DNA of 64,000 nucleotides from a virus (taxonomy: Duplodnaviria; Caudoviricetes): positions 1 to 64,000 of IMG/VR virus record IMGVR_UViG_3300033121_002300; one strand, given 5' to 3'. A model generated the notes under the pieces. That model ran no database searches. It was not told where the DNA came from and saw only the letters and a list, made by a program, of their open reading frames with translations. Both the position numbers and the translations under genes were made by a program. Positions 3,183 to 62,569 of this stretch are shown in pieces (the first letter of the stretch is position 1; each line of letters begins with the position of its first letter).

Positions 3183-5438
3183 ATGAATAATTCCAGCAAA
3201 ATTTTATCAAATGTAATTCATTATATGAAATATGCAGCTTATCTACCGGAAAGCAAAAGAAGGGAAACATTTGAAGAAACAGTTACTAGAAACAAGGAAA
3301 TGCATCAAAGAAAATTTCCTTATCTTAGTCAAAATATTGAAAGTATTTATAAAGATTTTGTTTACAATAAAAACTTTTTACCGGCAATGAGAATGCTACA
3401 GTTTTCAGGGAAAGCTATAGAAAAAAATAATGCAAGGGCATTTAATTGCTCCTACGCTCCAATAGATTATTACAAAGTTTTTTCAGAAGCAATGTTTCTT
3501 CTCTTATCTGGTGTTGGATTTGGTTATTCAGTGCAATTTCATCATGTAAATAAGTTGCCCAAGGTAATTAAACCCAGTAAAGAAAAAGCGTTTGTCATTC
3601 CAGATGAAATTGAAGGATGGGCAGATGCTGTAAATGAGCTAATGAAGGCTTTCTTTGGGCTAGGAGATTTACCTATATTTGATTTTAGTAAAATAAGGAA
3701 AAAAGGATCAAGATTAATAACAAGCGGAGGAAAAGCTCCCGGTCCAGAACCATTAAAAAAATGTCTTAAAAAAATACAAGAAGTATTAATTGAGATAGCT
3801 TCTAGGAATGAAGATAATTTAGGTACAGAAATTGAACCAATTGACTGCCATAGTATACTTTGCCACATTGCTGATGCTGTCTTAGCTGGAGGTATAAGAA
3901 GAGCTTCAATGATTGCCTTATTTTCATTTGATGATCATAAGATGAGAAATTGTAAGAGCGAAAAATGGTACGAGATAAATCCGCATTTTGCAAGAGCTAA
4001 TAATTCAGCTATTGCCGACTACAAAGAAATAACTGAGGGAATGTTTTTTGAGTTTTGGGAAGGGATTAAAAAAAATAAATCAGGAGAGCCTGGAATATAT
4101 TGGACCAATAATAAAAATATAGGAACAAATCCATGCTTTGCTAAAGATACTAAAATTCTTTCTGAAAACGGTTACGTTTCAATAGGTGATAATGTTGGAG
4201 TTATTAATTTAGTAAATAAAAATAATGAAATTGTTCCTGGTAAAATATGGTCAAATGGAATAAAAAAAATAATAAAATTAACAATGGATAATAAAGTCCA
4301 AATAAAATGCACTCCTGAGCATATTTTTTTAAAACAAAATGGAGGCGAAGTAAAAGCGATAGACTCTCTTTATGAAGAAATAAAGTCATTTACTGATAAT
4401 GTAAGTGTAAAAGTAATTAGAATAGATGATATAGCAGAACATGAAGAGGTATTCGATTTTTCATTGGATGATGATACTCACTGGGGTGTTGTTGAGGGAA
4501 TAATAGCTCATAATTGCGGGGAAGCGTCTTTGAGACCTTTTTCATTTTGCGATCTCGTTGAGATAAATGGTCATTTAATAGAAAACCAAGACCACTTTAA
4601 TAAAGTTTGCGTAGCAGCCTCATTTGTAAATACACTTCAAGCTGCTTACACGGACTTCACATACCTAAGGGATATCTGGAAAAAAACAACAGATGAAGAT
4701 GCTTTAATTGGAATAGGAATCACCGGTATTGCATCCGGCCGCCTTGAAAACATAAATCTATCTGAAGGGGCTAAGTTAGCAAAAGAAGAAAATATAAGAG
4801 TTTCGAAACTAATAGGAATAAATCCTGCAGCGAGAAGTTGTTTAATTAAACCCGGGGGGACTTCTTCTATTATTATGGAAACCACTTCTGGTATGAAAAA
4901 TTGGGAGTCTGAATATTTTATAAGAAGAGCTCGTGTAACAAAAACAGAGCCTATATACGCTTACTTAAAAGAAAAGTTACCAATGTTAATTGAGGATGAA
5001 TTTTATGATCCCGAAAATACAGCTGTCATAAATTTCCCTCAAAAAGCTCCGGAGAATGGAATATTAGACAGAGAAGTAAGAGCTCTTGATATGTTTAACA
5101 GAGTCAAAAGATTCAATCTTGAATGGATAAGACCGTCACATAACCACGGTGAAAACTTTCATAATGTATCAGCTACTGTTTACCTTCAAGATGATGAGTG
5201 GGATCAAGCCGGTTCATGGTTGTGGGAAAATAGAAATGACTACCATGGATTAACAGTGCTTCCGGTTGATAATAATTCTTATAAACAGCTACCATTTGAG
5301 CCATGTAGTAAAGAAGAATATGAAAGATTATCCCAACATTTAAATAATATTGATTTAACCGAGATATTTGAAGATGATGATTTAACTAATTTTAATGAAA
5401 TAATAGCTTGCTCTGGAGGGGCTTGTAATATTATTTAA
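3183..5438 (+). CDS. nrdJ: class II (B12-dependent) ribonucleotide reductase with mini-intein
   Basis: FNCS, GVGFG, GG.RRA.MI, GEPG, TNP|CGE (after intein removal), KPGGT and C-terminal CSGGAC; no ATP cone. Confidence 0.9.
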   Translation: MNNSSKILSNVIHYMKYAAYLPESKRRETFEETVTRNKEMHQRKFPYLSQNIESIYKDFVYNKNFLPAMRMLQFSGKAIEKNNARAFNCSYAPIDYYKVFSEAMFLLLSGVGFGYSVQFHHVNKLPKVIKPSKEKAFVIPDEIEGWADAVNELMKAFFGLGDLPIFDFSKIRKKGSRLITSGGKAPGPEPLKKCLKKIQEVLIEIASRNEDNLGTEIEPIDCHSILCHIADAVLAGGIRRASMIALFSFDDHKMRNCKSEKWYEINPHFARANNSAIADYKEITEGMFFEFWEGIKKNKSGEPGIYWTNNKNIGTNPCFAKDTKILSENGYVSIGDNVGVINLVNKNNEIVPGKIWSNGIKKIIKLTMDNKVQIKCTPEHIFLKQNGGEVKAIDSLYEEIKSFTDNVSVKVIRIDDIAEHEEVFDFSLDDDTHWGVVEGIIAHNCGEASLRPFSFCDLVEINGHLIENQDHFNKVCVAASFVNTLQAAYTDFTYLRDIWKKTTDEDALIGIGITGIASGRLENINLSEGAKLAKEENIRVSKLIGINPAARSCLIKPGGTSSIIMETTSGMKNWESEYFIRRARVTKTEPIYAYLKEKLPMLIEDEFYDPENTAVINFPQKAPENGILDREVRALDMFNRVKRFNLEWIRPSHNHGENFHNVSATVYLQDDEWDQAGSWLWENRNDYHGLTVLPVDNNSYKQLPFEPCSKEEYERLSQHLNNIDLTEIFEDDDLTNFNEIIACSGGACNII
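4134..4514 (+). mobile_element. 127 aa mini-intein in NrdJ (no endonuclease)
   Basis: CFAKDTKI (block A), CTPEH (B), VFDFSL (F), IAHN|C (G); inserted in NP|CGE. Confidence 0.9.
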
Positions 5439-9751: not shown

Positions 9752-10819
9752 TTGAACAAAAATATACTTAAAATAGGTACTGCATTTTCTGGTATAGGAG
9801 CCAAAGAACAAGCTGTTAAGAATTTAAATATACCATATAGAATAGAATTTGCTTGTGAAATAGATAGATTTTTTAGGACAACATATCTCAATAATTATTT
9901 CCCGCTTAAATTTTACAACGACTGGTTTAATATCTCCTCAGATTGGAACGAATTACCAGATGTTGATTTATTTATGGCAACAATTCCAAATAATATGCCT
10001 GGAGATTTTTCCAGAAAAAAATTTGAATATATAAGAGAGAAAACATTTAAATCAATACACGATTATCTTAAAGCAAAAAAACCAGATTACTTTATAATAG
10101 AAGATACCCCTAAAATAGCAAACTTATCTAAACATCAAAGCGTGTTTGGTAATTTTTTGGATTATTTAGGAACGGAATTTGAAGGTCAATTATCAATGTT
10201 CCCAAATGAAAATGCCTTAGATTATGGAATAAGCTGGAGAACACTTAAGAACTGTGATTTTGGAACACCCTTAAGACAATCAAGATTATATATAGTTGGC
10301 GTGAAAAATAATAAATTCACATTTCCCAACCCTAAAAAAAAGCATATTTTCGTTAAGGATATATTAGAAGATTTACATCCTGTATGTGAAAATACCAACA
10401 GTAGTATTTGGTTGAAAAAAAAAATATCAAATAAAATCTTAGACACCTTAAATATTAAACTCAATATTAATGATGGATTATTGTTAAATGAAATAATTGA
10501 ATCTACAGATAAATCACTAACAGATAAATCAGAAAATTTTTTAAAAAATAATCACAAGGTATATTCTGTAGATGGGTTATCTCCATCATTTACAGGTAAG
10601 ATGTCTTTAAAACAAAATAGGTGCGACTTTGGTATTTTTTTAGTAAAAAACAGATTAAGAGCTTTAACTGTTTTAGAGGTATTTAGGTTAATGGGTTTTC
10701 CTGATGATTTTAATAGACCTAGAACTAAACTTCAAGGTTATCGTCAGGCAAGTAATAGTAGCTGTGTTCCTGTTTATGAATCTTTGATTGAACAGATATT
10801 AAAAATGAGGGATAAATAA
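9752..10819 (+). CDS. C5-cytosine methyltransferase-like protein lacking catalytic motifs
   Basis: Motifs I (FSGIGA), II (ACEID), IX (RALTVLEVFRLMGFPD) and X (QASNS) present; PCQ becomes PNN, ENV becomes EDT, QxRxR becomes LRQSR. Confidence 0.8.
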   Translation: MNKNILKIGTAFSGIGAKEQAVKNLNIPYRIEFACEIDRFFRTTYLNNYFPLKFYNDWFNISSDWNELPDVDLFMATIPNNMPGDFSRKKFEYIREKTFKSIHDYLKAKKPDYFIIEDTPKIANLSKHQSVFGNFLDYLGTEFEGQLSMFPNENALDYGISWRTLKNCDFGTPLRQSRLYIVGVKNNKFTFPNPKKKHIFVKDILEDLHPVCENTNSSIWLKKKISNKILDTLNIKLNINDGLLLNEIIESTDKSLTDKSENFLKNNHKVYSVDGLSPSFTGKMSLKQNRCDFGIFLVKNRLRALTVLEVFRLMGFPDDFNRPRTKLQGYRQASNSSCVPVYESLIEQILKMRDK

Positions 10820-11733
10820 TGGTTAAAGTTCACGGTCAAGAAGAATCAAAAAGAAAAAAGAATAAATCGAAAGATAAAATAGAAGAAAAAAAAAATATAG
10901 AAAAATTTTCTGAGACTGAATCCAATGAAGAGGTAAAGTTAGAAAAAAAAAATAAGAGTGAAAATAAATTTTCTGAAGAAGAATTGAAAATAAAGACATC
11001 TATATATGATACATTGATAAGTTCTTCATATATAAAAAATTCAGGTTTACCGGGTGATATCTTTGATTCAATAGCAGAAGATATTGCTGAAAATTTAATT
11101 ACCGGATTAAAACAATCCGGATTTAATATAATTAATAAGGTTAAGTTAGAAGAAATTCAAAACACTTTACTGAAACTAAATAGCAATCCAATTGACAAAA
11201 CTAAAATAATAAAGGAATATCTTGATAAACAAGGTAATTATTTAATTTCAGTAATTAATGAATTATTTCAACATAGTCATAAATTCTATGAATTAGACTT
11301 CAATCAATTTGTTCCATTTGAAAAACCTGATTTAGTAATGAAAATGAAGGATGAAGATGATCAAATAGTAATAGCCAGTAATGAAGATAACACAAAGGGT
11401 TTATCAACCTTTTCTTTAATATCAACAATTACTGATATTATCATGCAAAAAAGAATAGCCTTCAATGTAGATGAAGAAACCGGTCAAATATTAGGAATCT
11501 GTTTCTGGAAAAATATAAAAAGTGAATCTTTAAATAAAAGACTTGAATCAGTGATTGAGTTGTTAGAAAAAAATAATAAAAATAAAAAAACATCTCCCAA
11601 TTCAATTAAAGCTAAACACCATTTAGACAAAATAACTGAAGATCAGTCTGAAAAAAGAGAACTTCTTGATGAGTTAATTAAAATAACAATTGATAGCATT
11701 AAAATTATTAAGGAAACAGAAAGTGAAGGATAA
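10819..11733 (+). CDS. hypothetical protein
   Basis: 304 aa; K/E-rich N-terminus; TAATG-coupled. Confidence 0.6.
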   Translation: MVKVHGQEESKRKKNKSKDKIEEKKNIEKFSETESNEEVKLEKKNKSENKFSEEELKIKTSIYDTLISSSYIKNSGLPGDIFDSIAEDIAENLITGLKQSGFNIINKVKLEEIQNTLLKLNSNPIDKTKIIKEYLDKQGNYLISVINELFQHSHKFYELDFNQFVPFEKPDLVMKMKDEDDQIVIASNEDNTKGLSTFSLISTITDIIMQKRIAFNVDEETGQILGICFWKNIKSESLNKRLESVIELLEKNNKNKKTSPNSIKAKHHLDKITEDQSEKRELLDELIKITIDSIKIIKETESEG

Positions 11734-14422
11734 ATTAAATCTTAGACCTTATCAAATAGAATGCGCTGAAAAAATAATACAGTCATATAATCAAGAAGAA
11801 CCGGGGGGAATTGTTTATATGGCCACAGGGCTAGGTAAAACAGTTCTTGCAAATGAAGTTATAAGTAGATTAAATGTAAAAACTTTAATATTAGTCCACA
11901 AAAATGAATTAGTAAATCAATTTATTCAAAAATTATTATTCTTTAATCCTGAAATATCATACGGAATAGTAAAAGCTGAAAAAAATTTACTTGGAAATAA
12001 AATAACAATAGCATCCATTCAAACCCTGTTAGGAGAAAGAAGACTTCAACAGGTGATTGATCATGGGCCATATGAATTAATAATAACCGATGAATGTTTT
12101 ATAGGCTCAACTTTAATTGACGGTAAGGCAATTAAAGATTTAAAAGTTGGAGATTATGTTAATTCATACAATCATAATACTGATAAAATTGAAAAAAAAC
12201 AAATTACATCAACATTTAAAAATAAAAGTAAAATTTTATTAAAAATAATAACAAGTAACGGAACCATTTACTCAACACCAAATCACCCATTTTGGAATGG
12301 TTACTATTATATTAAGGCTAAAAAACTAAAGAAAGGAGATTTCTTATATGAACAAAATATTTTGTCATCACTGCCAAGCGGAAACAAGTCTACAGCCACA
12401 TATAAAGAAAGTAAACTACGGAATAAGCGAACAAATGTACAAAGATCTAGGTTACGCTTATTGTTCAATAGAATGCCAAAAAATAATGCGAAAACAAATA
12501 AGATCTCAGAAAATGAGAGAAACAAATTTAAAAAGAAGGGATATTATTTCCGAAAGAATGAAAAAACAGAACCCAATGTTTATAGAAGAAATAAGGTTAA
12601 AATCAAAAGAATCTTTAAAAAACATAAAACACAAGCCTGTAATTCAAGGTGGAAATGGAAAACCTTCACCTATCCCTCAGCAAAAGCTGTGGGAAAAATT
12701 AGGAGAAGGATGGACAAAAGAATTTGTCGTGTCAAAGATAAAACAATATGGGGAACAGTACCCAAGTTGTTACAAAATAGATATAGCAAATCAATCTTTA
12801 ATGATAGCGGTAGAAGTAGATGGAGGGAGCCACAACTCATTCGCAAGGAAGCAACAGGACAAAAGAAAGGAACAATTACTCAAACAGTTAGGGTGGAAAG
12901 TATTAAGATTCTCAAATCGCCAAGTAACAGAGAATATAGACGAATGTGTCCAGACGGTTATGTCTATAATATAGAGGTGGAAGATAATAATAATTACTTC
13001 GTTAACAACATATTAGTTCATAATTGCCATCATTACTCTGGAAACGAATGGGCTTCAGTATTAAGTAAATTTAATGGATATAAACTCGGATTAACAGCAA
13101 CTCCAAATGGATTAGGTGAAAATGACGGTGAAGTTATATATAGATATACCATATTTGATGGTATAAAAAATAAATATTTATGTGACATAAAGGGCATTAA
13201 AGTAAATCTTGAAATAGATTTTAGTAAGGTTAAAGAATACAAAGGAGACTTTCAGGAAAAATCTCTTTGTGAACAAATGATGAAGCCAGAAAATATGGAA
13301 GAGACATATAAAGCCTGGGAAAAACATTGCCAAGATAGAAAAACAGCCGTTTTTTGTGTTAATGTAAAACACGCTCAAAGTTTAAATGAATTATTTAGGA
13401 ATAAAGGAGTGAAATCTGATGTCGTAATAGGTGAAACACCTTTAGAAGAAAGAGATATTCTGTATAATAAACTTGAATCAGGAGAAATAAAGGTGTTATT
13501 TTCTGTAAATGTAATGTCAGAAGGATTGGATTTACCGAGTTTGTCGGCAATATTAATGGCAAGACCTACTCTTTCAGAGACTTATTATATCCAAGCGGTA
13601 GGAAGAGCTTTGAGATTACACCCAAACAAGAAAAATGCCTTAATAATTGACCTAGTAGGAAACTCAGAGAAGTTCAGATTAATCCAACTCGGTATACTTT
13701 TTGGAAAAAAACCTAAAAAAGATAAGGAGGCTAAAGCTAAATTAAAAGATTTAGGATTAGAAATACCCGAAATACCAGAAGAAATAGATAGTGTATTAAG
13801 TCTAATTGCCAAAGAAGAAAATATATCACTGGAAAATACTCAAGATGGAAGAAAATTTGAATGGGTTGATGTTGATGGTAAGTTTGTTCTTACTATGGGA
13901 AATGATAAATTAGGCTTTCTTGTTATCGAAAAAGCAGGCGAAGACTTTAATTCTTGGAGAATAAAGAGATACTATAGCCAAAGTTGGAGAGATAAAATTG
14001 AGACATTAGTTGACGACCTGCCTTTTGATTGGTGTATAAGTATTGCAGAAAAAGAGGTTGAGAGATTTATCGAAGAAACAACTATTCCTCTTATATCAAG
14101 AGACTCAAATTGGAGAGATCTTGAACCTTCCTATAAGCAAATTGAACTGTTAAATGAATTGGGTTGTAAAGATATACCCAAAACAAGAGGTGATGCAACC
14201 TCGTTGATTGTTAAATATACAGTTAAACAAAAACTAAATGGATATAATGCCGCATTATCAGACCAGTCATCAATTAAAGCTCATGCAGCAATAATAAAGA
14301 TGCACAAGAACAATGAACTTAATGTTAAATTGGGTGACTTTGAACCCGATAAGCTATCAATAAATGAAGTGAATAGAATCAAATTCTTCCACTTCTACAA
14401 TCAAAATAAAGTTAAAAAATAA
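11723..14422 (+). CDS. superfamily 2 DExH helicase (type III Res/UvsW-like) with intein
   Basis: LRPYQ (Q motif), MATGLGKT, ITDE|CH after splicing, LTATP, SEGLDLP, YIQAVGRALR; likely GTG start at 11723. Confidence 0.9.
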   Translation: MKDKLNLRPYQIECAEKIIQSYNQEEPGGIVYMATGLGKTVLANEVISRLNVKTLILVHKNELVNQFIQKLLFFNPEISYGIVKAEKNLLGNKITIASIQTLLGERRLQQVIDHGPYELIITDECFIGSTLIDGKAIKDLKVGDYVNSYNHNTDKIEKKQITSTFKNKSKILLKIITSNGTIYSTPNHPFWNGYYYIKAKKLKKGDFLYEQNILSSLPSGNKSTATYKESKLRNKRTNVQRSRLRLLFNRMPKNNAKTNKISENERNKFKKKGYYFRKNEKTEPNVYRRNKVKIKRIFKKHKTQACNSRWKWKTFTYPSAKAVGKIRRRMDKRICRVKDKTIWGTVPKLLQNRYSKSIFNDSGRSRWREPQLIRKEATGQKKGTITQTVRVESIKILKSPSNREYRRMCPDGYVYNIEVEDNNNYFVNNILVHNCHHYSGNEWASVLSKFNGYKLGLTATPNGLGENDGEVIYRYTIFDGIKNKYLCDIKGIKVNLEIDFSKVKEYKGDFQEKSLCEQMMKPENMEETYKAWEKHCQDRKTAVFCVNVKHAQSLNELFRNKGVKSDVVIGETPLEERDILYNKLESGEIKVLFSVNVMSEGLDLPSLSAILMARPTLSETYYIQAVGRALRLHPNKKNALIIDLVGNSEKFRLIQLGILFGKKPKKDKEAKAKLKDLGLEIPEIPEEIDSVLSLIAKEENISLENTQDGRKFEWVDVDGKFVLTMGNDKLGFLVIEKAGEDFNSWRIKRYYSQSWRDKIETLVDDLPFDWCISIAEKEVERFIEETTIPLISRDSNWRDLEPSYKQIELLNELGCKDIPKTRGDATSLIVKYTVKQKLNGYNAALSDQSSIKAHAAIIKMHKNNELNVKLGDFEPDKLSINEVNRIKFFHFYNQNKVKK
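12095..13024 (+). mobile_element. 310 aa intein in helicase motif II
   Basis: CFIGSTLI (A), STPNHPF (B), VYNIEVEDNNNYFVNNILVHN|C (F/G); splicing restores DECH. Confidence 0.9.
12348..12974 (+). CDS. DUF559/Vsr-like endonuclease nested in the +1 frame of the helicase intein
   Basis: AAGGAG RBS upstream; N-terminal CHHC..CSIEC zinc finger; YKIDIA...IAVEVDGGSH...QDKRKEQLLKQLGWKVLRFSN. Confidence 0.85.
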   Translation: MNKIFCHHCQAETSLQPHIKKVNYGISEQMYKDLGYAYCSIECQKIMRKQIRSQKMRETNLKRRDIISERMKKQNPMFIEEIRLKSKESLKNIKHKPVIQGGNGKPSPIPQQKLWEKLGEGWTKEFVVSKIKQYGEQYPSCYKIDIANQSLMIAVEVDGGSHNSFARKQQDKRKEQLLKQLGWKVLRFSNRQVTENIDECVQTVMSII

Positions 14423-56593: not shown

Positions 56594-59500
56594 ATGAGGC
56601 AACCGGATCAGTACACAAAAGCAATACAGGATTCCTTGAAACAAGTTTTAGAACAAACTTACAGTAAGATAGACGGAAAAAATAAATCAATAGAATTAAA
56701 TAACATAACATTTGATCCTATTCCTGAAAGTGATAATTACGCTAAGCAAAAAAAGATATTATTAAACAAAGAAACCGAGGGTGTTAACTTTTATGGAGAT
56801 GTAAGATTAGTTGATAAAGAATCAGGGAAAATAATTGACGAAAAAAAGAAACTTAAACTAGGTTTATTGCCCACAGTAACAGATAGACATTCATTTATAA
56901 TAAACGGAAAAGAATACAATGTTTTTAATCAACTTAGATTACAACCGGGTATATACACAAAAATAGATCAAAATGGATTACCAGTTGCGGGATTTAATCT
57001 GGAAAAAGGTAAGAACATGCAAATAACATATGTTCCCGCAAAAGAAAGGATGATGTTAAAAATTGAAAACACCAATATACCATTATACACACTCCTTAAA
57101 GATGTTTATAATTTACCGGAATCAAAATTAATTGAAGCGTTTGGAAAAGAATTTCACGGGTATCAGATTGATAAATATAAGAATGACTCTGAAAGATATT
57201 TAAACAATTTATATAAAGCTTTGACAGGTAATGAAGTTTCAGGTAGAACACCAAATCAGATGGCAATTGAAATAAAAGAGAGATTAAGTAAAACATCTAT
57301 GAATCCTGAAATAACCAAAATGACAACAGGAAAAGAATTTTCAAGTGTCACATCAGACTCTATTTTGGAAGGAGCAAAACAGGTACTAGGAATTCATCAA
57401 GGTAAAATCAACCCATCTGAAAGAGATAATTTAGCTTTTAAATCAGTATTATCGGCTGAAGATTTCATTAAGGAAAAATTCACCAAACTTGCACCTCAAA
57501 TAAAAAACAAGATTAAATTTAAGTTAGATAAATCAGATAAAATAATGGATACCGGAATATCAAGACAGGTGAGAGAAACTTTAAATGATTTTTTTACAAA
57601 AAGTAGACTGGTTAATTACTCTCAACAAATCAACCCAATGGAATTTCTTGAAAGCAGTCACAAAATAACCTCAATAGGAGAAGGCGCTATTTCAGATGTA
57701 CACTCATTACCGATTGAGAATAGAGATATACACTGGTCATTTGGTGGGTTCATAGACCCTGTAAGGACACCTGATAATATGAGAGCTGGAGCGGATGTAA
57801 GAACAGCGATGTCAGCATGGAAGGAGGGTAATACACTTAAGTCATTAGCTTTTAATAAATCAGGTCAACCGGTCGAAGTTTCTCCAGCTGAATTGTTTTA
57901 TAAAACCTATTCAATGCTGAATCAAAAATCAACAATTAAAGAAAACGGTCAAGAACTTTTTCCTGCATTTAGAAAAGGAAATATTGTTTACGTGCCCAAG
58001 AAAGAAATTGATTTTTTTGTAAAACCAGATTATGCCTTTACTCCAACAACGGCATATATCCCTTTTCTTGAATCAAATCAAGGTCAAAGATGCGCAATGG
58101 GAGCTAAAATGTTAACTCAAGCCTTATCATTAAAAGACAGAGAGACTCCATTAATTTCAACAGATGCCAGTAAGTTAATAGAAAATTCTTACGTACCAAA
58201 GTCAAAAGTTGACGGAGTTGTTGAGAAAATAAATAAAGACACATTGGAAATAAGAGATGAAAACGGAAACATTCATCATCACAATGTACCTAATAACTTC
58301 CCATTAAATTACCACTCATTTCTTGATTTTACTCCACTTGTAAAACCAGGTGATAAGGTTAAACAAGGTGACGTACTAGGTGATACAAATTTTTCCAGGA
58401 ACGGAAAAATGGCGCTTGGAGTAAACTTAAACGTTGCTTATATGCCATATAAAGGTTTAAATAACGATGATGCATTTGTTATAACTCAGCAAGGAGCAGA
58501 TAAGCTAACGTCACTGCATACATTTATATATGAATTACCATTATCTCCGGGAATAATTGCAGATAAAGAAAAATTCAGATCATATTATCCAAACAAATAT
58601 TCAGTTCAGCAATTAATGAAAATACAAAATTCAATAATTAAACAGGGAGCAAAAGTTGAGCCAGGAGATCCGTTGATTTTAGCATTAAGGAAAAAAAGTG
58701 AGTCACCTGAGGTCTTAATGATAGGAAAGATGTCGAGTCGAATATCTAATCCTTATGAGGATATTTCAATTTCATGGGATAAAGATTATCCTGGTGAAGT
58801 TATCGAAGTAGTAAGCGCAGGAGATCATTTAAAGGTAATTGTAAAAGCGGAAAGCCCTATGGTCATAGGAAGTAAGCTAGCTGGTAGATATGGTAATAAA
58901 GGGGTTGTAGCAGAAATTATCCCAAACCACCTTGCTCCAAAAAAAGAAAATGGAGAAATTCCTGATATAATAATGAACCCATCAACGATACCAAGCCGTA
59001 TGAATGTAGGTCAAACTCTTGAAACAGGATTGGCTAAGATAATAAAAAATAAAGGGCTTAACTCTCAATATATTCAAAACTTTAGCGGAGTTAAGAATAT
59101 AGAAGAAATGGAAAAAGCCATGGATAAAGCTGGTATAAAAGGAAGTGAAACATATATAGATCCTGAGACCGGAAAAAAAATTCCAAACGTATTTAACGGA
59201 TATCAATATATTTTAAAATTATTTAAAGAAGCTGAAACTGCTTATTCAGCGAGAAGTACTGGTAAATATGATATTGACTTAAGACCAATGAGAGGTGGGG
59301 TTGAAGGAAGTAAAGCAATTGGAATGTTAGACTTTTATGGAGTGTTGGCTCATAAGGGAGGTAATCGAGCTCTTTTATCAGAAATGGGTACTCTTAAGGC
59401 TGAATACAATCCTGAGTTTTGGTCAAGCTTATTACAAGGTAAACCGCTCCCTGCCCCAAAACCTACATTTGCTTTTAATAAATTTATTGGAATGATGCAG

Positions 59501-62500
59501 GGTATGGGAATAAACCTCCAAAAGAACGGTAACACAATGAAATTGATTCCATTTACAGATAAAGATATTGAAAAAATTTCAAATGGCGAAATAACAAAAG
59601 CGAGTACAGTTTTTGCTAAACCAGATGAAAAAACAGGGCTACCATTTAGACCTGAAACAAATGGATTATTTGACCCAGCAAAAACAGGTGGACTTAAAGG
59701 GACGAATTTCACTCATATAAATTTAGCTGTCCCTGTTGTCAATTCAATGTTTGAAAAACCAATAAGAACATTGCTTAATCTTAAACAGGACGAGTTTAAA
59801 AAAATATCAGAAGGAAGCAAAACTGTAACAATAAATAATGAAGAGTTAACAGGGGGAAAGGCAATACACGAATTACTTAAATCAATAAATCCCAAAACAG
59901 AACTAGATAAATTAAAAACAAATGTATTAACAACTAAGTCAATAACAAAAAAAGACGATATGATAAAAAAAATAAAATACTTACAACCCTTGGTTGAAAA
60001 TAAATTACTACCACATGAAGCTTATACTTTTACGAAATTACCGGTAATACCTCCAGCTTTCAGACCAATTTACCCTGACTCAGAAGGCAAAATGGTGGTA
60101 TCAGATGCAAATCATTTATATAAAGAAGTTATTGAATTTAATAATCAAATGAAAAGTCCATTAATGCAAGCATTAGATCACAATGATCCCATTTATCAAA
60201 AGGCACATAGGAATTTATTTAATTCAATAAAAAAACTACAGGGGCTTGATGGCACAACTGATTCAATGGATTTTTCAGCAAGAGAACCAAAAGGGTTTCT
60301 TCAGACGATAGTTGGAACAAATGCAAAGTATGGGTATTTCCAAAATAAATTAGTTTCTAAAGTTCAAGATTTGGTAGGGCGAAGTGTAATTACCCCTGAT
60401 ACTAAATTAGGTATAGATGAATTAGGTATTCCTGAGCCAATGGCCTGGGAATTATACACCCCATTTATCATTGGAGAGCTATCAAAAAGCGGATACGCAC
60501 TTCCTCAAGCAACAGAAGAAGTTAAAAACCGAACACAACTTGCTAGGAATATTTTACAATCACAAATGAAAGAAAGACCGGTTATATTAAACAGAGCTCC
60601 AACGCTGCATAAATTTAATATGATGGCTTTTAAACCTTCGCTAACTAACGGAAAACAAATAACAATGCCCTCGTTAGTTAATCGTGGATTTAATGCTGAC
60701 TATGACGGGGATACAGTATTATCATCGGTGTTTTGTAGGTTTAAATTAGTTGACATTAAATCAATTAACAAGTATAATACAAATGGAAACATTTATATTG
60801 AGGAAAATATTATGACATTCACAAACAAAATCTTATATCAAAATGGATTAATTAATCTTAGGGATTTTCCAAGAATTGAAGAAACAAAAATAGTCAAAGA
60901 TAATAAAGAATTTTATAAAGTGCCACAAGGGGTTGAGGTTTTAACTTTAAATAATGAAGGAGAGTTTAAATGGTTACAGGTTGATGAATATTCAATACAT
61001 AAAAACTTAATAATGAATGAGATTTCAACTCATAAAAACAGAACAGTTCAGGCTAGTAACGATCACTCATTTGTAACACTTGATTCTGATTTAAATATAA
61101 TAATGTCCAAAGCTGAATTAAATATGTTAATCCCGTGTAAGGTATCACCGGTTTTCCAGAGTTCTATTTATGATCTAAAATTAGAATTTAAAGATAGAAC
61201 GAATAGAAAGCATACATTTAGAGATAGAATGGAATTAAATTATTTTACTGGTCACTTAATTGGATGTATTGTCGGTGACGGATGGGTCTCATCCGTAGCA
61301 AAAGATAAAGGAGCTATTTGCTTTGCTTCTATTACACAGGAGTTAAACAAGCAGTGGAAAAAAACAATAGAAAAGTATATCGTTTCAGAATCAGAGGTAG
61401 TTCACTTATCATCAGTTAATTGTGATCATGTATATGAAGGGTTTGAATGTAAATCAAATAAAATAACTTGGTTTTCAGCAGGGGAATTCGCTTTATTGAT
61501 TAAAGATTGGGTTGGACATGGAGCTCAAAAAAAACATTTACCACCATTCTTCCTTGAGTCACCAATTGATTTTCGTAAAGGGCTTTTGGCTGGATTACTG
61601 GATACAGATGGTACTGTTAGTATTAATTCATCAGGAATAAGAAAGAATAAGTCTCAAGCTAATATTTCTATTTGCACAACATCTTATCAATTAGCTCATG
61701 AGATTATAGCGTTATCTAATTCTTTAGGTTATATATGTGGATTACAATATTCACAAACACCAAAAGGAGAGCCTTGTTATTATTGCATATTTGATACAGA
61801 GAGTATTCTAAAAATAAAAAAAGAAATATTGCTTTATCATCCAGAAAAGGCCAACAAATTAAAACAAATCAGAGACAATGCAAATATTGAAAGAGAAAAA
61901 TATGGCCCCCCATTAACGGTATCAAGATTAAATGAGCTAAGGAAAATAATAGGAGCTCCTCGTGTTTTCAAAAGAGGAACAAAGACACCAAGTTTTGAAG
62001 GTAAGGAACTTGAAATAGCATATTTAAAACGAAATTTAAACGCTGAAATTGCAGCACAAATAAAAAAATTAGACGGAAGATGTGGTCATTTAACGCTAGG
62101 AAAATGTAAGGAAATAATCTCCCTTAATTTATCTGAAATAAATGAAGACCCATTTTGGTTGCGTTGGAAAGATTGGGTATTAAATCCTGATGTTTCTTGG
62201 GAGCGTATAACTGATATTAAGCCACTACCTTTTATAACCGAAGCTTACGATTTAACCATCCCTCCTGCATATACAATGGTAACCGAGTCCGGTATTGTTG
62301 TTTGGGATTCTCTTAACGTCCATATGCCTGTGGCTCCCGATGCTGTTAAAGAGGCATGGAAGATGCTCCCGTCAAATAATCTATTTAATCCATTAAATAA
62401 AAATCCAATGTTTATGCCAGATCAAGAAGCTGTAATGGGGCTTTATCAAATAAGCACGCCAAAACAAAATACACCGATAATGAAATTTAAAAGCATTGAA

Positions 62501-62569
62501 GATGCAAAAAAAGCTTATCATGATGGTAAAATAGATATAAATGATCATATTGAGGTACAAAACAAATAA
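56594..62569 (+). CDS. multisubunit-type DNA-directed RNA polymerase, beta fused to N-terminal beta', with intein
   Basis: beta motifs: QRCAMGAKMLTQA, GSKLAGRYGNKG, IMNPSTIPSRMNVGQ, ARSTGKY. beta' motifs: VIPPAFRP, SDANHLY, KVQDLVGRSVI, LNRAPTLH, NADYDGD|SLNVH. Confidence 0.95.
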   Translation: MRQPDQYTKAIQDSLKQVLEQTYSKIDGKNKSIELNNITFDPIPESDNYAKQKKILLNKETEGVNFYGDVRLVDKESGKIIDEKKKLKLGLLPTVTDRHSFIINGKEYNVFNQLRLQPGIYTKIDQNGLPVAGFNLEKGKNMQITYVPAKERMMLKIENTNIPLYTLLKDVYNLPESKLIEAFGKEFHGYQIDKYKNDSERYLNNLYKALTGNEVSGRTPNQMAIEIKERLSKTSMNPEITKMTTGKEFSSVTSDSILEGAKQVLGIHQGKINPSERDNLAFKSVLSAEDFIKEKFTKLAPQIKNKIKFKLDKSDKIMDTGISRQVRETLNDFFTKSRLVNYSQQINPMEFLESSHKITSIGEGAISDVHSLPIENRDIHWSFGGFIDPVRTPDNMRAGADVRTAMSAWKEGNTLKSLAFNKSGQPVEVSPAELFYKTYSMLNQKSTIKENGQELFPAFRKGNIVYVPKKEIDFFVKPDYAFTPTTAYIPFLESNQGQRCAMGAKMLTQALSLKDRETPLISTDASKLIENSYVPKSKVDGVVEKINKDTLEIRDENGNIHHHNVPNNFPLNYHSFLDFTPLVKPGDKVKQGDVLGDTNFSRNGKMALGVNLNVAYMPYKGLNNDDAFVITQQGADKLTSLHTFIYELPLSPGIIADKEKFRSYYPNKYSVQQLMKIQNSIIKQGAKVEPGDPLILALRKKSESPEVLMIGKMSSRISNPYEDISISWDKDYPGEVIEVVSAGDHLKVIVKAESPMVIGSKLAGRYGNKGVVAEIIPNHLAPKKENGEIPDIIMNPSTIPSRMNVGQTLETGLAKIIKNKGLNSQYIQNFSGVKNIEEMEKAMDKAGIKGSETYIDPETGKKIPNVFNGYQYILKLFKEAETAYSARSTGKYDIDLRPMRGGVEGSKAIGMLDFYGVLAHKGGNRALLSEMGTLKAEYNPEFWSSLLQGKPLPAPKPTFAFNKFIGMMQGMGINLQKNGNTMKLIPFTDKDIEKISNGEITKASTVFAKPDEKTGLPFRPETNGLFDPAKTGGLKGTNFTHINLAVPVVNSMFEKPIRTLLNLKQDEFKKISEGSKTVTINNEELTGGKAIHELLKSINPKTELDKLKTNVLTTKSITKKDDMIKKIKYLQPLVENKLLPHEAYTFTKLPVIPPAFRPIYPDSEGKMVVSDANHLYKEVIEFNNQMKSPLMQALDHNDPIYQKAHRNLFNSIKKLQGLDGTTDSMDFSAREPKGFLQTIVGTNAKYGYFQNKLVSKVQDLVGRSVITPDTKLGIDELGIPEPMAWELYTPFIIGELSKSGYALPQATEEVKNRTQLARNILQSQMKERPVILNRAPTLHKFNMMAFKPSLTNGKQITMPSLVNRGFNADYDGDTVLSSVFCRFKLVDIKSINKYNTNGNIYIEENIMTFTNKILYQNGLINLRDFPRIEETKIVKDNKEFYKVPQGVEVLTLNNEGEFKWLQVDEYSIHKNLIMNEISTHKNRTVQASNDHSFVTLDSDLNIIMSKAELNMLIPCKVSPVFQSSIYDLKLEFKDRTNRKHTFRDRMELNYFTGHLIGCIVGDGWVSSVAKDKGAICFASITQELNKQWKKTIEKYIVSESEVVHLSSVNCDHVYEGFECKSNKITWFSAGEFALLIKDWVGHGAQKKHLPPFFLESPIDFRKGLLAGLLDTDGTVSINSSGIRKNKSQANISICTTSYQLAHEIIALSNSLGYICGLQYSQTPKGEPCYYCIFDTESILKIKKEILLYHPEKANKLKQIRDNANIEREKYGPPLTVSRLNELRKIIGAPRVFKRGTKTPSFEGKELEIAYLKRNLNAEIAAQIKKLDGRCGHLTLGKCKEIISLNLSEINEDPFWLRWKDWVLNPDVSWERITDIKPLPFITEAYDLTIPPAYTMVTESGIVVWDSLNVHMPVAPDAVKEAWKMLPSNNLFNPLNKNPMFMPDQEAVMGLYQISTPKQNTPIMKFKSIEDAKKAYHDGKIDINDHIEVQNK
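60713..62308 (+). mobile_element. 532 aa LAGLIDADG intein with atypical ends
   Basis: Follows NADYDGD; ASNDHS (B), LIGCIVGDG and LLAGLLDTDG (LAGLIDADG), AYDLTI (F); ends IVVWD|S. Confidence 0.85.
60750..60814 (+). promoter_or_regulatory. perfect sigma70 promoter, RBS and in-frame ATG inside the intein
   Basis: TTGACA 60750-55, 17 nt spacer, TATAAT 60773-78, GAGG 60800-03, ATG 60812 in the RNAP frame. Confidence 0.75.

Follow-up and report, generated by a model that had tools for sequence, protein, structure and literature searches.

How can one stretch of phage DNA serve a splicing intein in one reading frame and an endonuclease in another? The question is raised by a DNA helicase gene in a stretch of 64,000 nucleotides (the window, by which we mean the whole of the DNA analysed; 32% GC) that forms positions 1 to 64,000 of IMG/VR virus record IMGVR_UViG_3300033121_002300, an 82-kb metagenome-derived viral record estimated to be ~45% complete. 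The helicase gene is interrupted by an intein whose middle part overlaps a complete open reading frame (ORF) in the +1 frame of the same strand. We propose that the locus is very probably a composite selfish element consisting of two genes on the same DNA, namely a mini-intein in the helicase and a nested Vsr-like/DUF559 homing-endonuclease gene. An earlier reading of the nucleotide letters (the original prediction) had placed the helicase, the intein, the +1 ORF at 12348–12974 and an AAGGAG motif on this DNA, and all were found at those positions. The features of the locus are as follows, where pLDDT denotes predicted local distance difference test score.

11690–14422, + strand: gene for a superfamily 2 (SF2; ResIII/DExH) DNA helicase, a single open frame of 910 amino acids (aa) that crosses the intein without a stop.
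12083–12094, + strand: left half of the predicted homing site, placed from the intein boundaries.
12095–13024, + strand: class 1 intein of 310 aa, from Cys1 at 12095 to Asn at 13024, followed by Cys+1.
12095–12364, + strand: N-terminal HINT lobe of the intein, residues 1–90, with blocks A and B; pLDDT 90–98, with mini-intein matches in Foldseek.
12333–12338, + strand: Shine–Dalgarno-like AAGGAG, 9 nucleotides (nt) before the endonuclease ATG at 12348.
12348–12974, + strand: nested gene for a putative homing endonuclease, 208 aa, in the +1 frame relative to the intein, with a DUF559 match.
12365–12874, + strand: intein-frame linker, residues 91–260, K/R-rich; predicted to be disordered, stop-free, a shadow translation of the endonuclease gene.
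12875–13024, + strand: C-terminal HINT lobe of the intein, residues 261–310, with blocks F and G; both models have pLDDT >90 in the overlap.
13025–13036, + strand: right half of the predicted homing site, the codons for Cys+1, His, His and Tyr, likewise placed from the intein boundaries.

The helicase ORF matches the Pfam families ResIII (E = 2.7e-24), Helicase_C (9e-18), Intein_splicing and PT-HINT, as well as PHROG 16 (DNA helicase) at 1.5e-71. Its start is ambiguous, being either the TTG at 11690 or a codon 11 codons further downstream, as in the database protein P0001 (899 aa). The intein lies in helicase motif II at DE/CHH, where the slash marks the insertion point, between the flanks ...LIITDE and CHHYSG. 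The Intein_splicing match scores 49.4 bits against a cut-off of 35.8, and the class 1 residues C1, T61 to H64 (STPNHPF), H309-N310 and C+1 are all present. Among 32 intein homologs, C1, H64 and N310 never vary, while T61 and H309 are near-invariant. An AlphaFold2 model of the intein frame, built from an alignment of 32 sequences, has pLDDT >90 for residues 1–90 and 261–310, and only 43–58, without secondary structure, for residues 91–260. The model matches structures of BIL domains and mini-inteins (Foldseek, E down to 5e-7).

The +1 ORF, on its part, encodes a recognizable nuclease. It matches Pfam DUF559 (PF04480) with E = 3.4e-13, at 49.9 bits where the cut-off is 20.6, and at 50.3 bits in a scan of the genome; no NUMOD family was found in the Pfam scan of this ORF. 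The N-terminus is a four-cysteine zinc finger (C6, C9, C39 and C43, all near-invariant), followed by a helical region, an NPM motif and a GGNG loop, and then by a Vsr-like/DUF559 nuclease core at residues ~109–208. Across 35 endonuclease sequences, the window's included, D145, E156, H162, D171 and K174 are invariant and D158 is near-invariant. The AlphaFold2 model built from the alignment of 35 sequences has a mean pLDDT of 87; in it, a small zinc finger at the N-terminus leads into long helices and then into an alpha/beta core at the C-terminus. Its top PDB match in Foldseek is the catalytic domain of the homing endonuclease I-Bth0305I (3r3p; TM, or template modelling, score 0.67–0.69, normalised on the target), the DUF559 protein 3hrl comes next, and the Vsr entries 1cw0 and 1vsr are among the further matches. 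A profile search against the PDB gave 3hrl at 1.7e-8 and 3r3p at 0.003, and was stronger than a search with the single sequence, which gave 3hrl only (E = 0.003). Both the Pfam match and the top Foldseek match support the DUF559/Vsr-like identity proposed originally.

The endonuclease gene reaches into the coding sequence of both intein lobes. The final 5–6 codons of the N lobe overlap its start, and the first ~32 codons of the C lobe (12875–12971) overlap its conserved C-terminus, with a confident structure predicted in both frames. Within this dual-fold stretch, the first strand of the intein C lobe coincides with the nuclease motif LGWKVLRFSN. Conservation of the intein frame peaks here as well, at 0.33, for positions 12876–12905.

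Why is the intein frame open over the whole endonuclease gene? In this arrangement, an intein-frame codon consists of the last base of one endonuclease codon and the first two bases of the next. Because of this codon composition across the frames, a stop in the intein frame needs an endonuclease codon ending in T before one starting with AA, AG or GA. There are 72 endonuclease codons that begin with AA, AG or GA, and T precedes none of them, whereas it fills 41% of the corresponding positions in 46 other ORFs of the window; calculated analytically, P for 0 T at 72 stop-prone sites is ~1e-13.6. Synonymous resampling of the endonuclease produced a mean of 21 stops in the host frame, and 10 at the least. 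Elsewhere in the window, no gene stays open at this offset for more than 74 codons, versus 209 here, and the third frame across the intein has 50 stops. The openness of the intein frame is thus beyond chance.

The same pattern is found throughout the homologs. Embedded copies of the endonuclease have 0 intein-frame stops in 12,435 codons, versus 1,054 in the other frame. Six free-standing endonuclease homologs serve as a natural control, and these have 16–29 stops in the equivalent frame. For residues encoded only by NNY codons (F, Y, H, N, D and C) that stand before a stop-prone codon, the embedded copies use C 394 times and T 0 times, whereas the free-standing copies use C 20 times and T 71 times. 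The idea that selection keeps the intein frame free of stops, which the original prediction had put forward for the window, therefore holds there and in all embedded homologs.

Codon-position conservation in the two frames, which had been suggested as a check, was compared by threading nucleotides on the endonuclease alignment for 11 diverged loci and 143 ungapped codons. The endonuclease frame has a mean pairwise amino-acid identity of 0.44, whereas the intein frame and the third frame both have 0.22, so that the intein-frame middle, already described as K/R-rich and lacking motifs, is no better conserved than the third frame. Among the 1,573 codons compared, there are 0 stops in the endonuclease frame, 0 in the intein frame and 140 in the third frame. 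The mean nucleotide difference at endonuclease codon positions 1, 2 and 3 is 0.45, 0.39 and 0.645, respectively. Two close pairs of loci are more telling. L002 and L003 differ at 5, 1 and 35 sites at endonuclease positions 1, 2 and 3, which amounts to 6 changes in the endonuclease and 34 in the intein-frame peptide; L004 and L005 differ at 4, 3 and 20 sites, giving 7 and 23 changes, respectively. The substitutions in these close pairs track the endonuclease frame. Therefore, the endonuclease protein is under purifying selection, and the middle of the intein frame varies freely as long as it contains no stop.

We also considered that the +1 ORF is a pseudogene. This was rejected, since the endonuclease frame is under purifying selection.

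Is the arrangement peculiar to the window? A tblastn search with the +1 protein against 50,697 phage records matched 40, and each match lies beneath an annotated helicase or other host coding sequence (CDS) that runs through it. We inspected the records of seven cultured phages: Vibrio phages CP-T1, K391, 1.088.O, 104E43.1 and 159E43-1b, Corynebacterium phage phi673 and Pseudomonas phage MR14. All seven have a stop-free intein of 300–356 aa at DE/CHH with the endonuclease homolog in +1, and in all seven the helicase CDS is the only annotation over the endonuclease match. A census of 74 loci was then compiled from pattern scans of IMG/VR and JGI metagenomes and look-ups of the closest helicase homologs, with classes set by hidden Markov models (HMMs) for the endonuclease and for each of the N and C lobes of the intein.

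Contiguous intein, endonuclease gene in +1: 52 of 74 loci.
Contiguous intein, endonuclease in frame: 0 of 74 loci.
Contiguous intein, endonuclease gene in +2: 0 of 74 loci.
Partial contigs with one lobe found, all +1: 10 of 74 loci.
No intein lobes detected: 10 of 74 loci.
Intein lobes in separate ORFs (L068 and L024): 2 of 74 loci.

Six of the 10 loci without lobes are truly free-standing, and the rest, which include the clamp-loader locus L016/L062, have a stop-free host frame. The endonuclease gene is decayed in L024 and in the partial contig L023, and truncated (120 aa) in L049. The site of nearly all insertions is DE/C(H) of an SF2 helicase; a clamp-loader gene has one (...VHN/CHK). This last case, L016/L062 (an IMG/VR and a JGI contig, positions 2–1132), has the endonuclease in +1 within an intein of a DNA_pol3_delta2 clamp loader. 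It suggests that the element moves from one P-loop NTPase to another by way of their Walker B "DE-x-H" sites. The phages with the +1 form infect Proteobacteria, Actinobacteria and low-GC hosts.

At the protein level, where helicase homologs number at least 647, an intein of at least 200 aa is present at DE/C in 108 of the best 120 helicase homologs from a set of 5.8 billion proteins. An in-frame endonuclease-type Pfam domain occurs in just 2 of these 120, and in at least one of the two, P0003, it belongs to a second intein. P0003 (Logan SRR31980946, 1247 aa) has a linker-type intein at DE/C and, in the Helicase_C region, a second one that contains LAGLIDADG motifs. The regular expression LQxR[HY] for the intein-frame peptide finds 38 of the 108 long inteins and is too narrow: the three motif-negative proteins for which DNA was examined all carry the +1 endonuclease gene (HMM E 1e-62 to 1e-74), with the variants YKVDIA or YKLDIA. 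Judged by these sequence matches, the family of +1-nested helicase inteins is estimated to number in the hundreds.

Evidence for mobility comes from one group of Vibrio phages, in which the exteins are 93.6% identical in nucleotides and three alleles exist at exactly GAG/TGT. Vibrio phage 234P10 has an exactly empty site; the Vibrio phages K453 (L082) and 268E42.1 (L083) have a 150-aa mini-intein without a nested ORF; and Vibrio phage K391 and about 25 others have a 356-aa intein together with the endonuclease gene. In K453, the helicase gene is directly followed by a CDS annotated as "endonuclease". At L009 and L014, a free-standing copy of the endonuclease gene is located directly upstream of an intein-less helicase gene. 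An unrooted FastTree phylogeny of 55 endonucleases places free-standing copies in at least four places among the embedded ones, with local supports of 0.96–0.97. The correlation of pairwise identities between endonuclease, intein lobes and exteins is moderate (Spearman ~0.4) and is confounded by truncated contigs. The existence of both free-standing homologs and mini-intein alleles without an endonuclease fits the origin given in the original prediction, in which a free-standing endonuclease gene would have invaded a mini-intein. A similar invasion origin has been modelled by Dassa et al. 2009 (PMC2677866) and Gosselin et al. (bioRxiv 10.1101/2025.01.02.630785).

How might such an element work? 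The proposed mechanism begins with a mini-intein (HINT) that sits in motif II (DExH) of an SF2 helicase essential to the phage, and a gene of the free-standing endonuclease type that would be nested in the +1 frame of its inter-lobe loop. Ribosomes translating the helicase would read straight across, and the DNA of the endonuclease, read one base earlier, would yield a disordered linker of ~170 residues. With no stop in the host frame anywhere along the endonuclease gene, one precursor should form and splice in cis. Its two HINT lobes would then dock, excise the 310-residue insert as a free intein of 35 kDa and restore DECHH in a helicase of 600 aa. The endonuclease would be made separately, as a 24-kDa product, by internal initiation at the ATG at 12348 behind the AAGGAG supplied by the intein codons. 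The empty allele would read ...ACC GAT GAA/TGC CAT CAT..., and the predicted intein-less junction in the window's helicase is ...ACCGATGAA/TGCCATCAT... During co-infection, the endonuclease would cut an intein-less helicase allele at or near GAT GAA/TGC CAT, and repair would transfer the intein together with the endonuclease gene to the cleaved allele, a scheme modelled on I-Bth0305I and other homing endonucleases.

In the window, AAGGAG is formed by the intein codons AAA GGA GAT (Lys-Gly-Asp), which encode the conserved GD that ends the N lobe. A Shine–Dalgarno-like motif stands 4–11 nt before a candidate start in 31 of 43 distinct homologs, and it often arises from the same intein segment, for example GACGAGGTT in Vibrio and Pseudomonas phages. 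A start codon precedes the first CxxC in every homolog.

What is the reason for the constant +1 register? Stops in the host frame of this register arise only as NNT followed by AA, AG or GA, and a change of NNT to NNC removes each of them. Because NNT to NNC is synonymous for every amino acid, such stops are removable at no cost to the endonuclease. For the other register, ATG followed by A gives an unavoidable TGA; this combination is present ~1.5 times in every 100 codons of the endonuclease, which amounts to three to four cases in each gene. We infer that the escape from NNT to NNC accounts for the constancy of +1.

Several observations weigh against this picture. First, 12 of the 43 homologs have no Shine–Dalgarno-like motif before any candidate start; some of their hosts may not use this signal. 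Second, a disordered insert of 170 residues might slow splicing. Third, common descent from a single +1 ancestor would yield the same constant register as the codon argument does. Furthermore, +1 as a universal register for nested endonucleases is ruled out by the published EndoVII-like and ShiLan HNH cases, which are in frame 3.

We hold a more far-reaching version only tentatively, and consider it rather doubtful as a whole. In it, the window would represent a very large unannotated family of composite elements that occupy the Walker B "DE-x-H" of P-loop NTPases (SF2 helicases and the clamp loader), with the +1 register imposed by the genetic code. The ribosome-binding site of the endonuclease would be drawn from the Gly-Asp codons of the intein, so that helicase translation and endonuclease initiation would compete on one mRNA and throttle homing, and the gene would have moved in and out of inteins repeatedly. 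If true, the repeated movement would follow from the free-standing copies that are nested within the endonuclease tree.

Could the +1 ORF be a relic that no longer homes, inactive or domesticated for another phage function and passed on by vertical inheritance only? The window's closest relatives, L018 and L019, have 49–55% endonuclease identity with a similar extein identity and give no sign of a recent transfer into the window phage, and the gene is truncated in L049 and decayed in L023 and L024. However, the strong purifying selection on the endonuclease frame in close pairs excludes inactivity, the catalytic-type residues are invariant in all 35 sequences with the window's among them, and presence or absence of the insert is polymorphic at one precise site in near-identical Vibrio phage helicases. 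We therefore regard a relic as unlikely; an active protein with a different function is the version that would agree with the selection pattern.

Programmed +1 ribosomal frameshifting from the helicase/intein frame, to give a fusion of N-extein, N-terminal intein lobe and endonuclease, is quite improbable. The constant register and the 12 homologs without an obvious Shine–Dalgarno-like motif would suit it. It is opposed by the strong AAGGAG-N9-ATG in the window, by the start codon that all homologs have before the first CxxC, and by the free-standing homologs, which begin at the equivalent position with a start codon of their own. Moreover, a +1-frame stop lies just 6 codons before the ATG (the open span is 12330–12974), which leaves almost no room for a shift site.

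It is more improbable still that the helicase is functionally a fractured gene, with halves made separately and joined by trans-splicing so that the open linker is irrelevant. The locus L068 does have a layout of this kind, and PHROGs 16259 and 9690 resemble helicase halves with intein lobes. But the window has 910 codons without a stop, and the strong selection for stop avoidance would be pointless if read-through did not matter. An assembly artefact, in which indels displaced an endonuclease that is truly an in-frame intein domain, is hardly credible even for a metagenome-derived viral contig, since two compensating indels would be required and would not account for the 209 stop-free codons of the wrong frame, and the same +1 layout recurs in >50 independent loci, finished genomes of cultured phages included, with the in-frame version at none of the 74.

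Two other genes in the window also appear to contain inteins. A ribonucleotide-reductase-like ORF of 751 aa at 3183–5438 (+ strand) has an apparent mini-intein without an endonuclease (...TNPC/FAKDTKIL...GIIAHN/CGEASL), with weak Intein_splicing matches at 4185–4514. A fused multisubunit RNA-polymerase-like ORF of 1991 aa at 56594–62569 (+ strand), with the motif NADYDGD, has an apparently canonical intein with in-frame LAGLIDADG-type motifs (LIGCIVGDGW and LLAGLLDTDG). The window thus holds a mini-intein, a canonical intein and an out-of-frame intein, and therefore three intein styles in one phage. A cytosine-5 DNA methyltransferase-like ORF at 9752–10819 (+ strand) lies two genes upstream of the helicase, and methylase genes also adjoin the homologous helicases in CP-T1 and Vibrio phage 104E43.1.

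What does the composite element tell us? It provides a clean natural example of a long same-strand overlap (627 nt), where selection maintains a protein in one frame and nothing but the absence of stops in the other, and the 394 C and 0 T at critical synonymous sites are an unambiguous signature of dual coding. A whole family of homing endonucleases is overlooked by gene callers. The findings support the view of intein evolution in which the splicing domain comes first and the endonuclease invades later. For experiments on intein homing in phages, a system is at hand in the cultured Vibrio phages, among which the empty, mini-intein and full alleles all occur.

How does the element compare with known systems? 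Gosselin, Arsenault and Gogarten (bioRxiv 10.1101/2025.01.02.630785) described actinobacteriophage inteins whose homing endonuclease is encoded in a frame of its own. The enzymes that they report are LAGLIDADG and VSR-like ones, both antisense, and endonuclease VII-like ones on the same strand in frame 3; the host genes encode polymerase, minor capsid, terminase and thymidylate synthase, and Vsr-like endonucleases are stated to be otherwise known just with split inteins. The window's intein is similar to theirs in that its frame is contiguous and stop-free with a middle that has no fold, in that a complete endonuclease ORF of known nuclease fold, which in the window is under purifying selection, covers that middle in another frame, and in the proposed origin from an intein invaded by a free-standing endonuclease gene. 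It differs in that the Vsr-like endonuclease is on the sense strand, in +1, and sits in the Walker B/DExH motif of SF2 helicases (plus one clamp loader). The original prediction had called the arrangement perhaps rare rather than unprecedented. There is indeed precedent in the study of Gosselin et al., but rarity does not apply, since the out-of-frame layout is the majority state in the window's family. A cyanobacterial dnaX intein with an out-of-frame endonuclease is the subject of a 2026 preprint (bioRxiv 10.64898/2026.09.14.751524), and ShiLan has an out-of-frame HNH insertion without a splicing domain (PMC11855218). No description of a same-strand +1 Vsr-like gene within contiguous helicase inteins was found in the searchable literature. 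Thus, the concept of an out-of-frame intein endonuclease is already published; the same-strand +1 helicase variant and its abundance appear to be new.

I-Bth0305I (PDB 3r3p) is an EDxHD (Vsr-like) homing endonuclease that is encoded by a group I intron and has NUMOD motifs (Taylor et al. 2011, PMC3239194). The window's endonuclease is likewise bipartite, with a DNA-binding part at the N-terminus and a Vsr-like nuclease at the C-terminus, and it has invariant acidic and His residues that are candidate equivalents of EDxHD. Unlike I-Bth0305I, it has a four-cysteine zinc finger and no NUMOD, and its sequence is closer to DUF559 (as in the 3hrl match at 1.7e-8).

A further parallel in layout is with the fractured genes of Dassa et al. 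2009 (PMC2677866), a study of fractured genes only, in which split inteins have a free-standing Vsr-like or GIY-YIG endonuclease gene between the halves. Both have a same-strand Vsr-like endonuclease gene between intein lobes in a phage DNA-metabolism gene, and in both the endonuclease ORF runs at its 3′ end into the beginning of the C-lobe coding sequence. A fractured gene is recognized by a host frame that breaks off behind the N lobe, with the C lobe and C-extein encoded in an ORF apart. This is what is seen in the relative L068 (metagenome contig SDBT01241308.1, positions 2–1400), in which a stop follows the N lobe, the linker frame contains 8 stops, and an ORF of its own encodes the C lobe and C-extein. 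The window's gene is not broken in this way. Where the fractured genes have a broken host frame and rely on trans-splicing, its host frame is open over the 627-nt overlap. The window's locus is thus the contiguous counterpart, until now missing, of Dassa's fractured genes.

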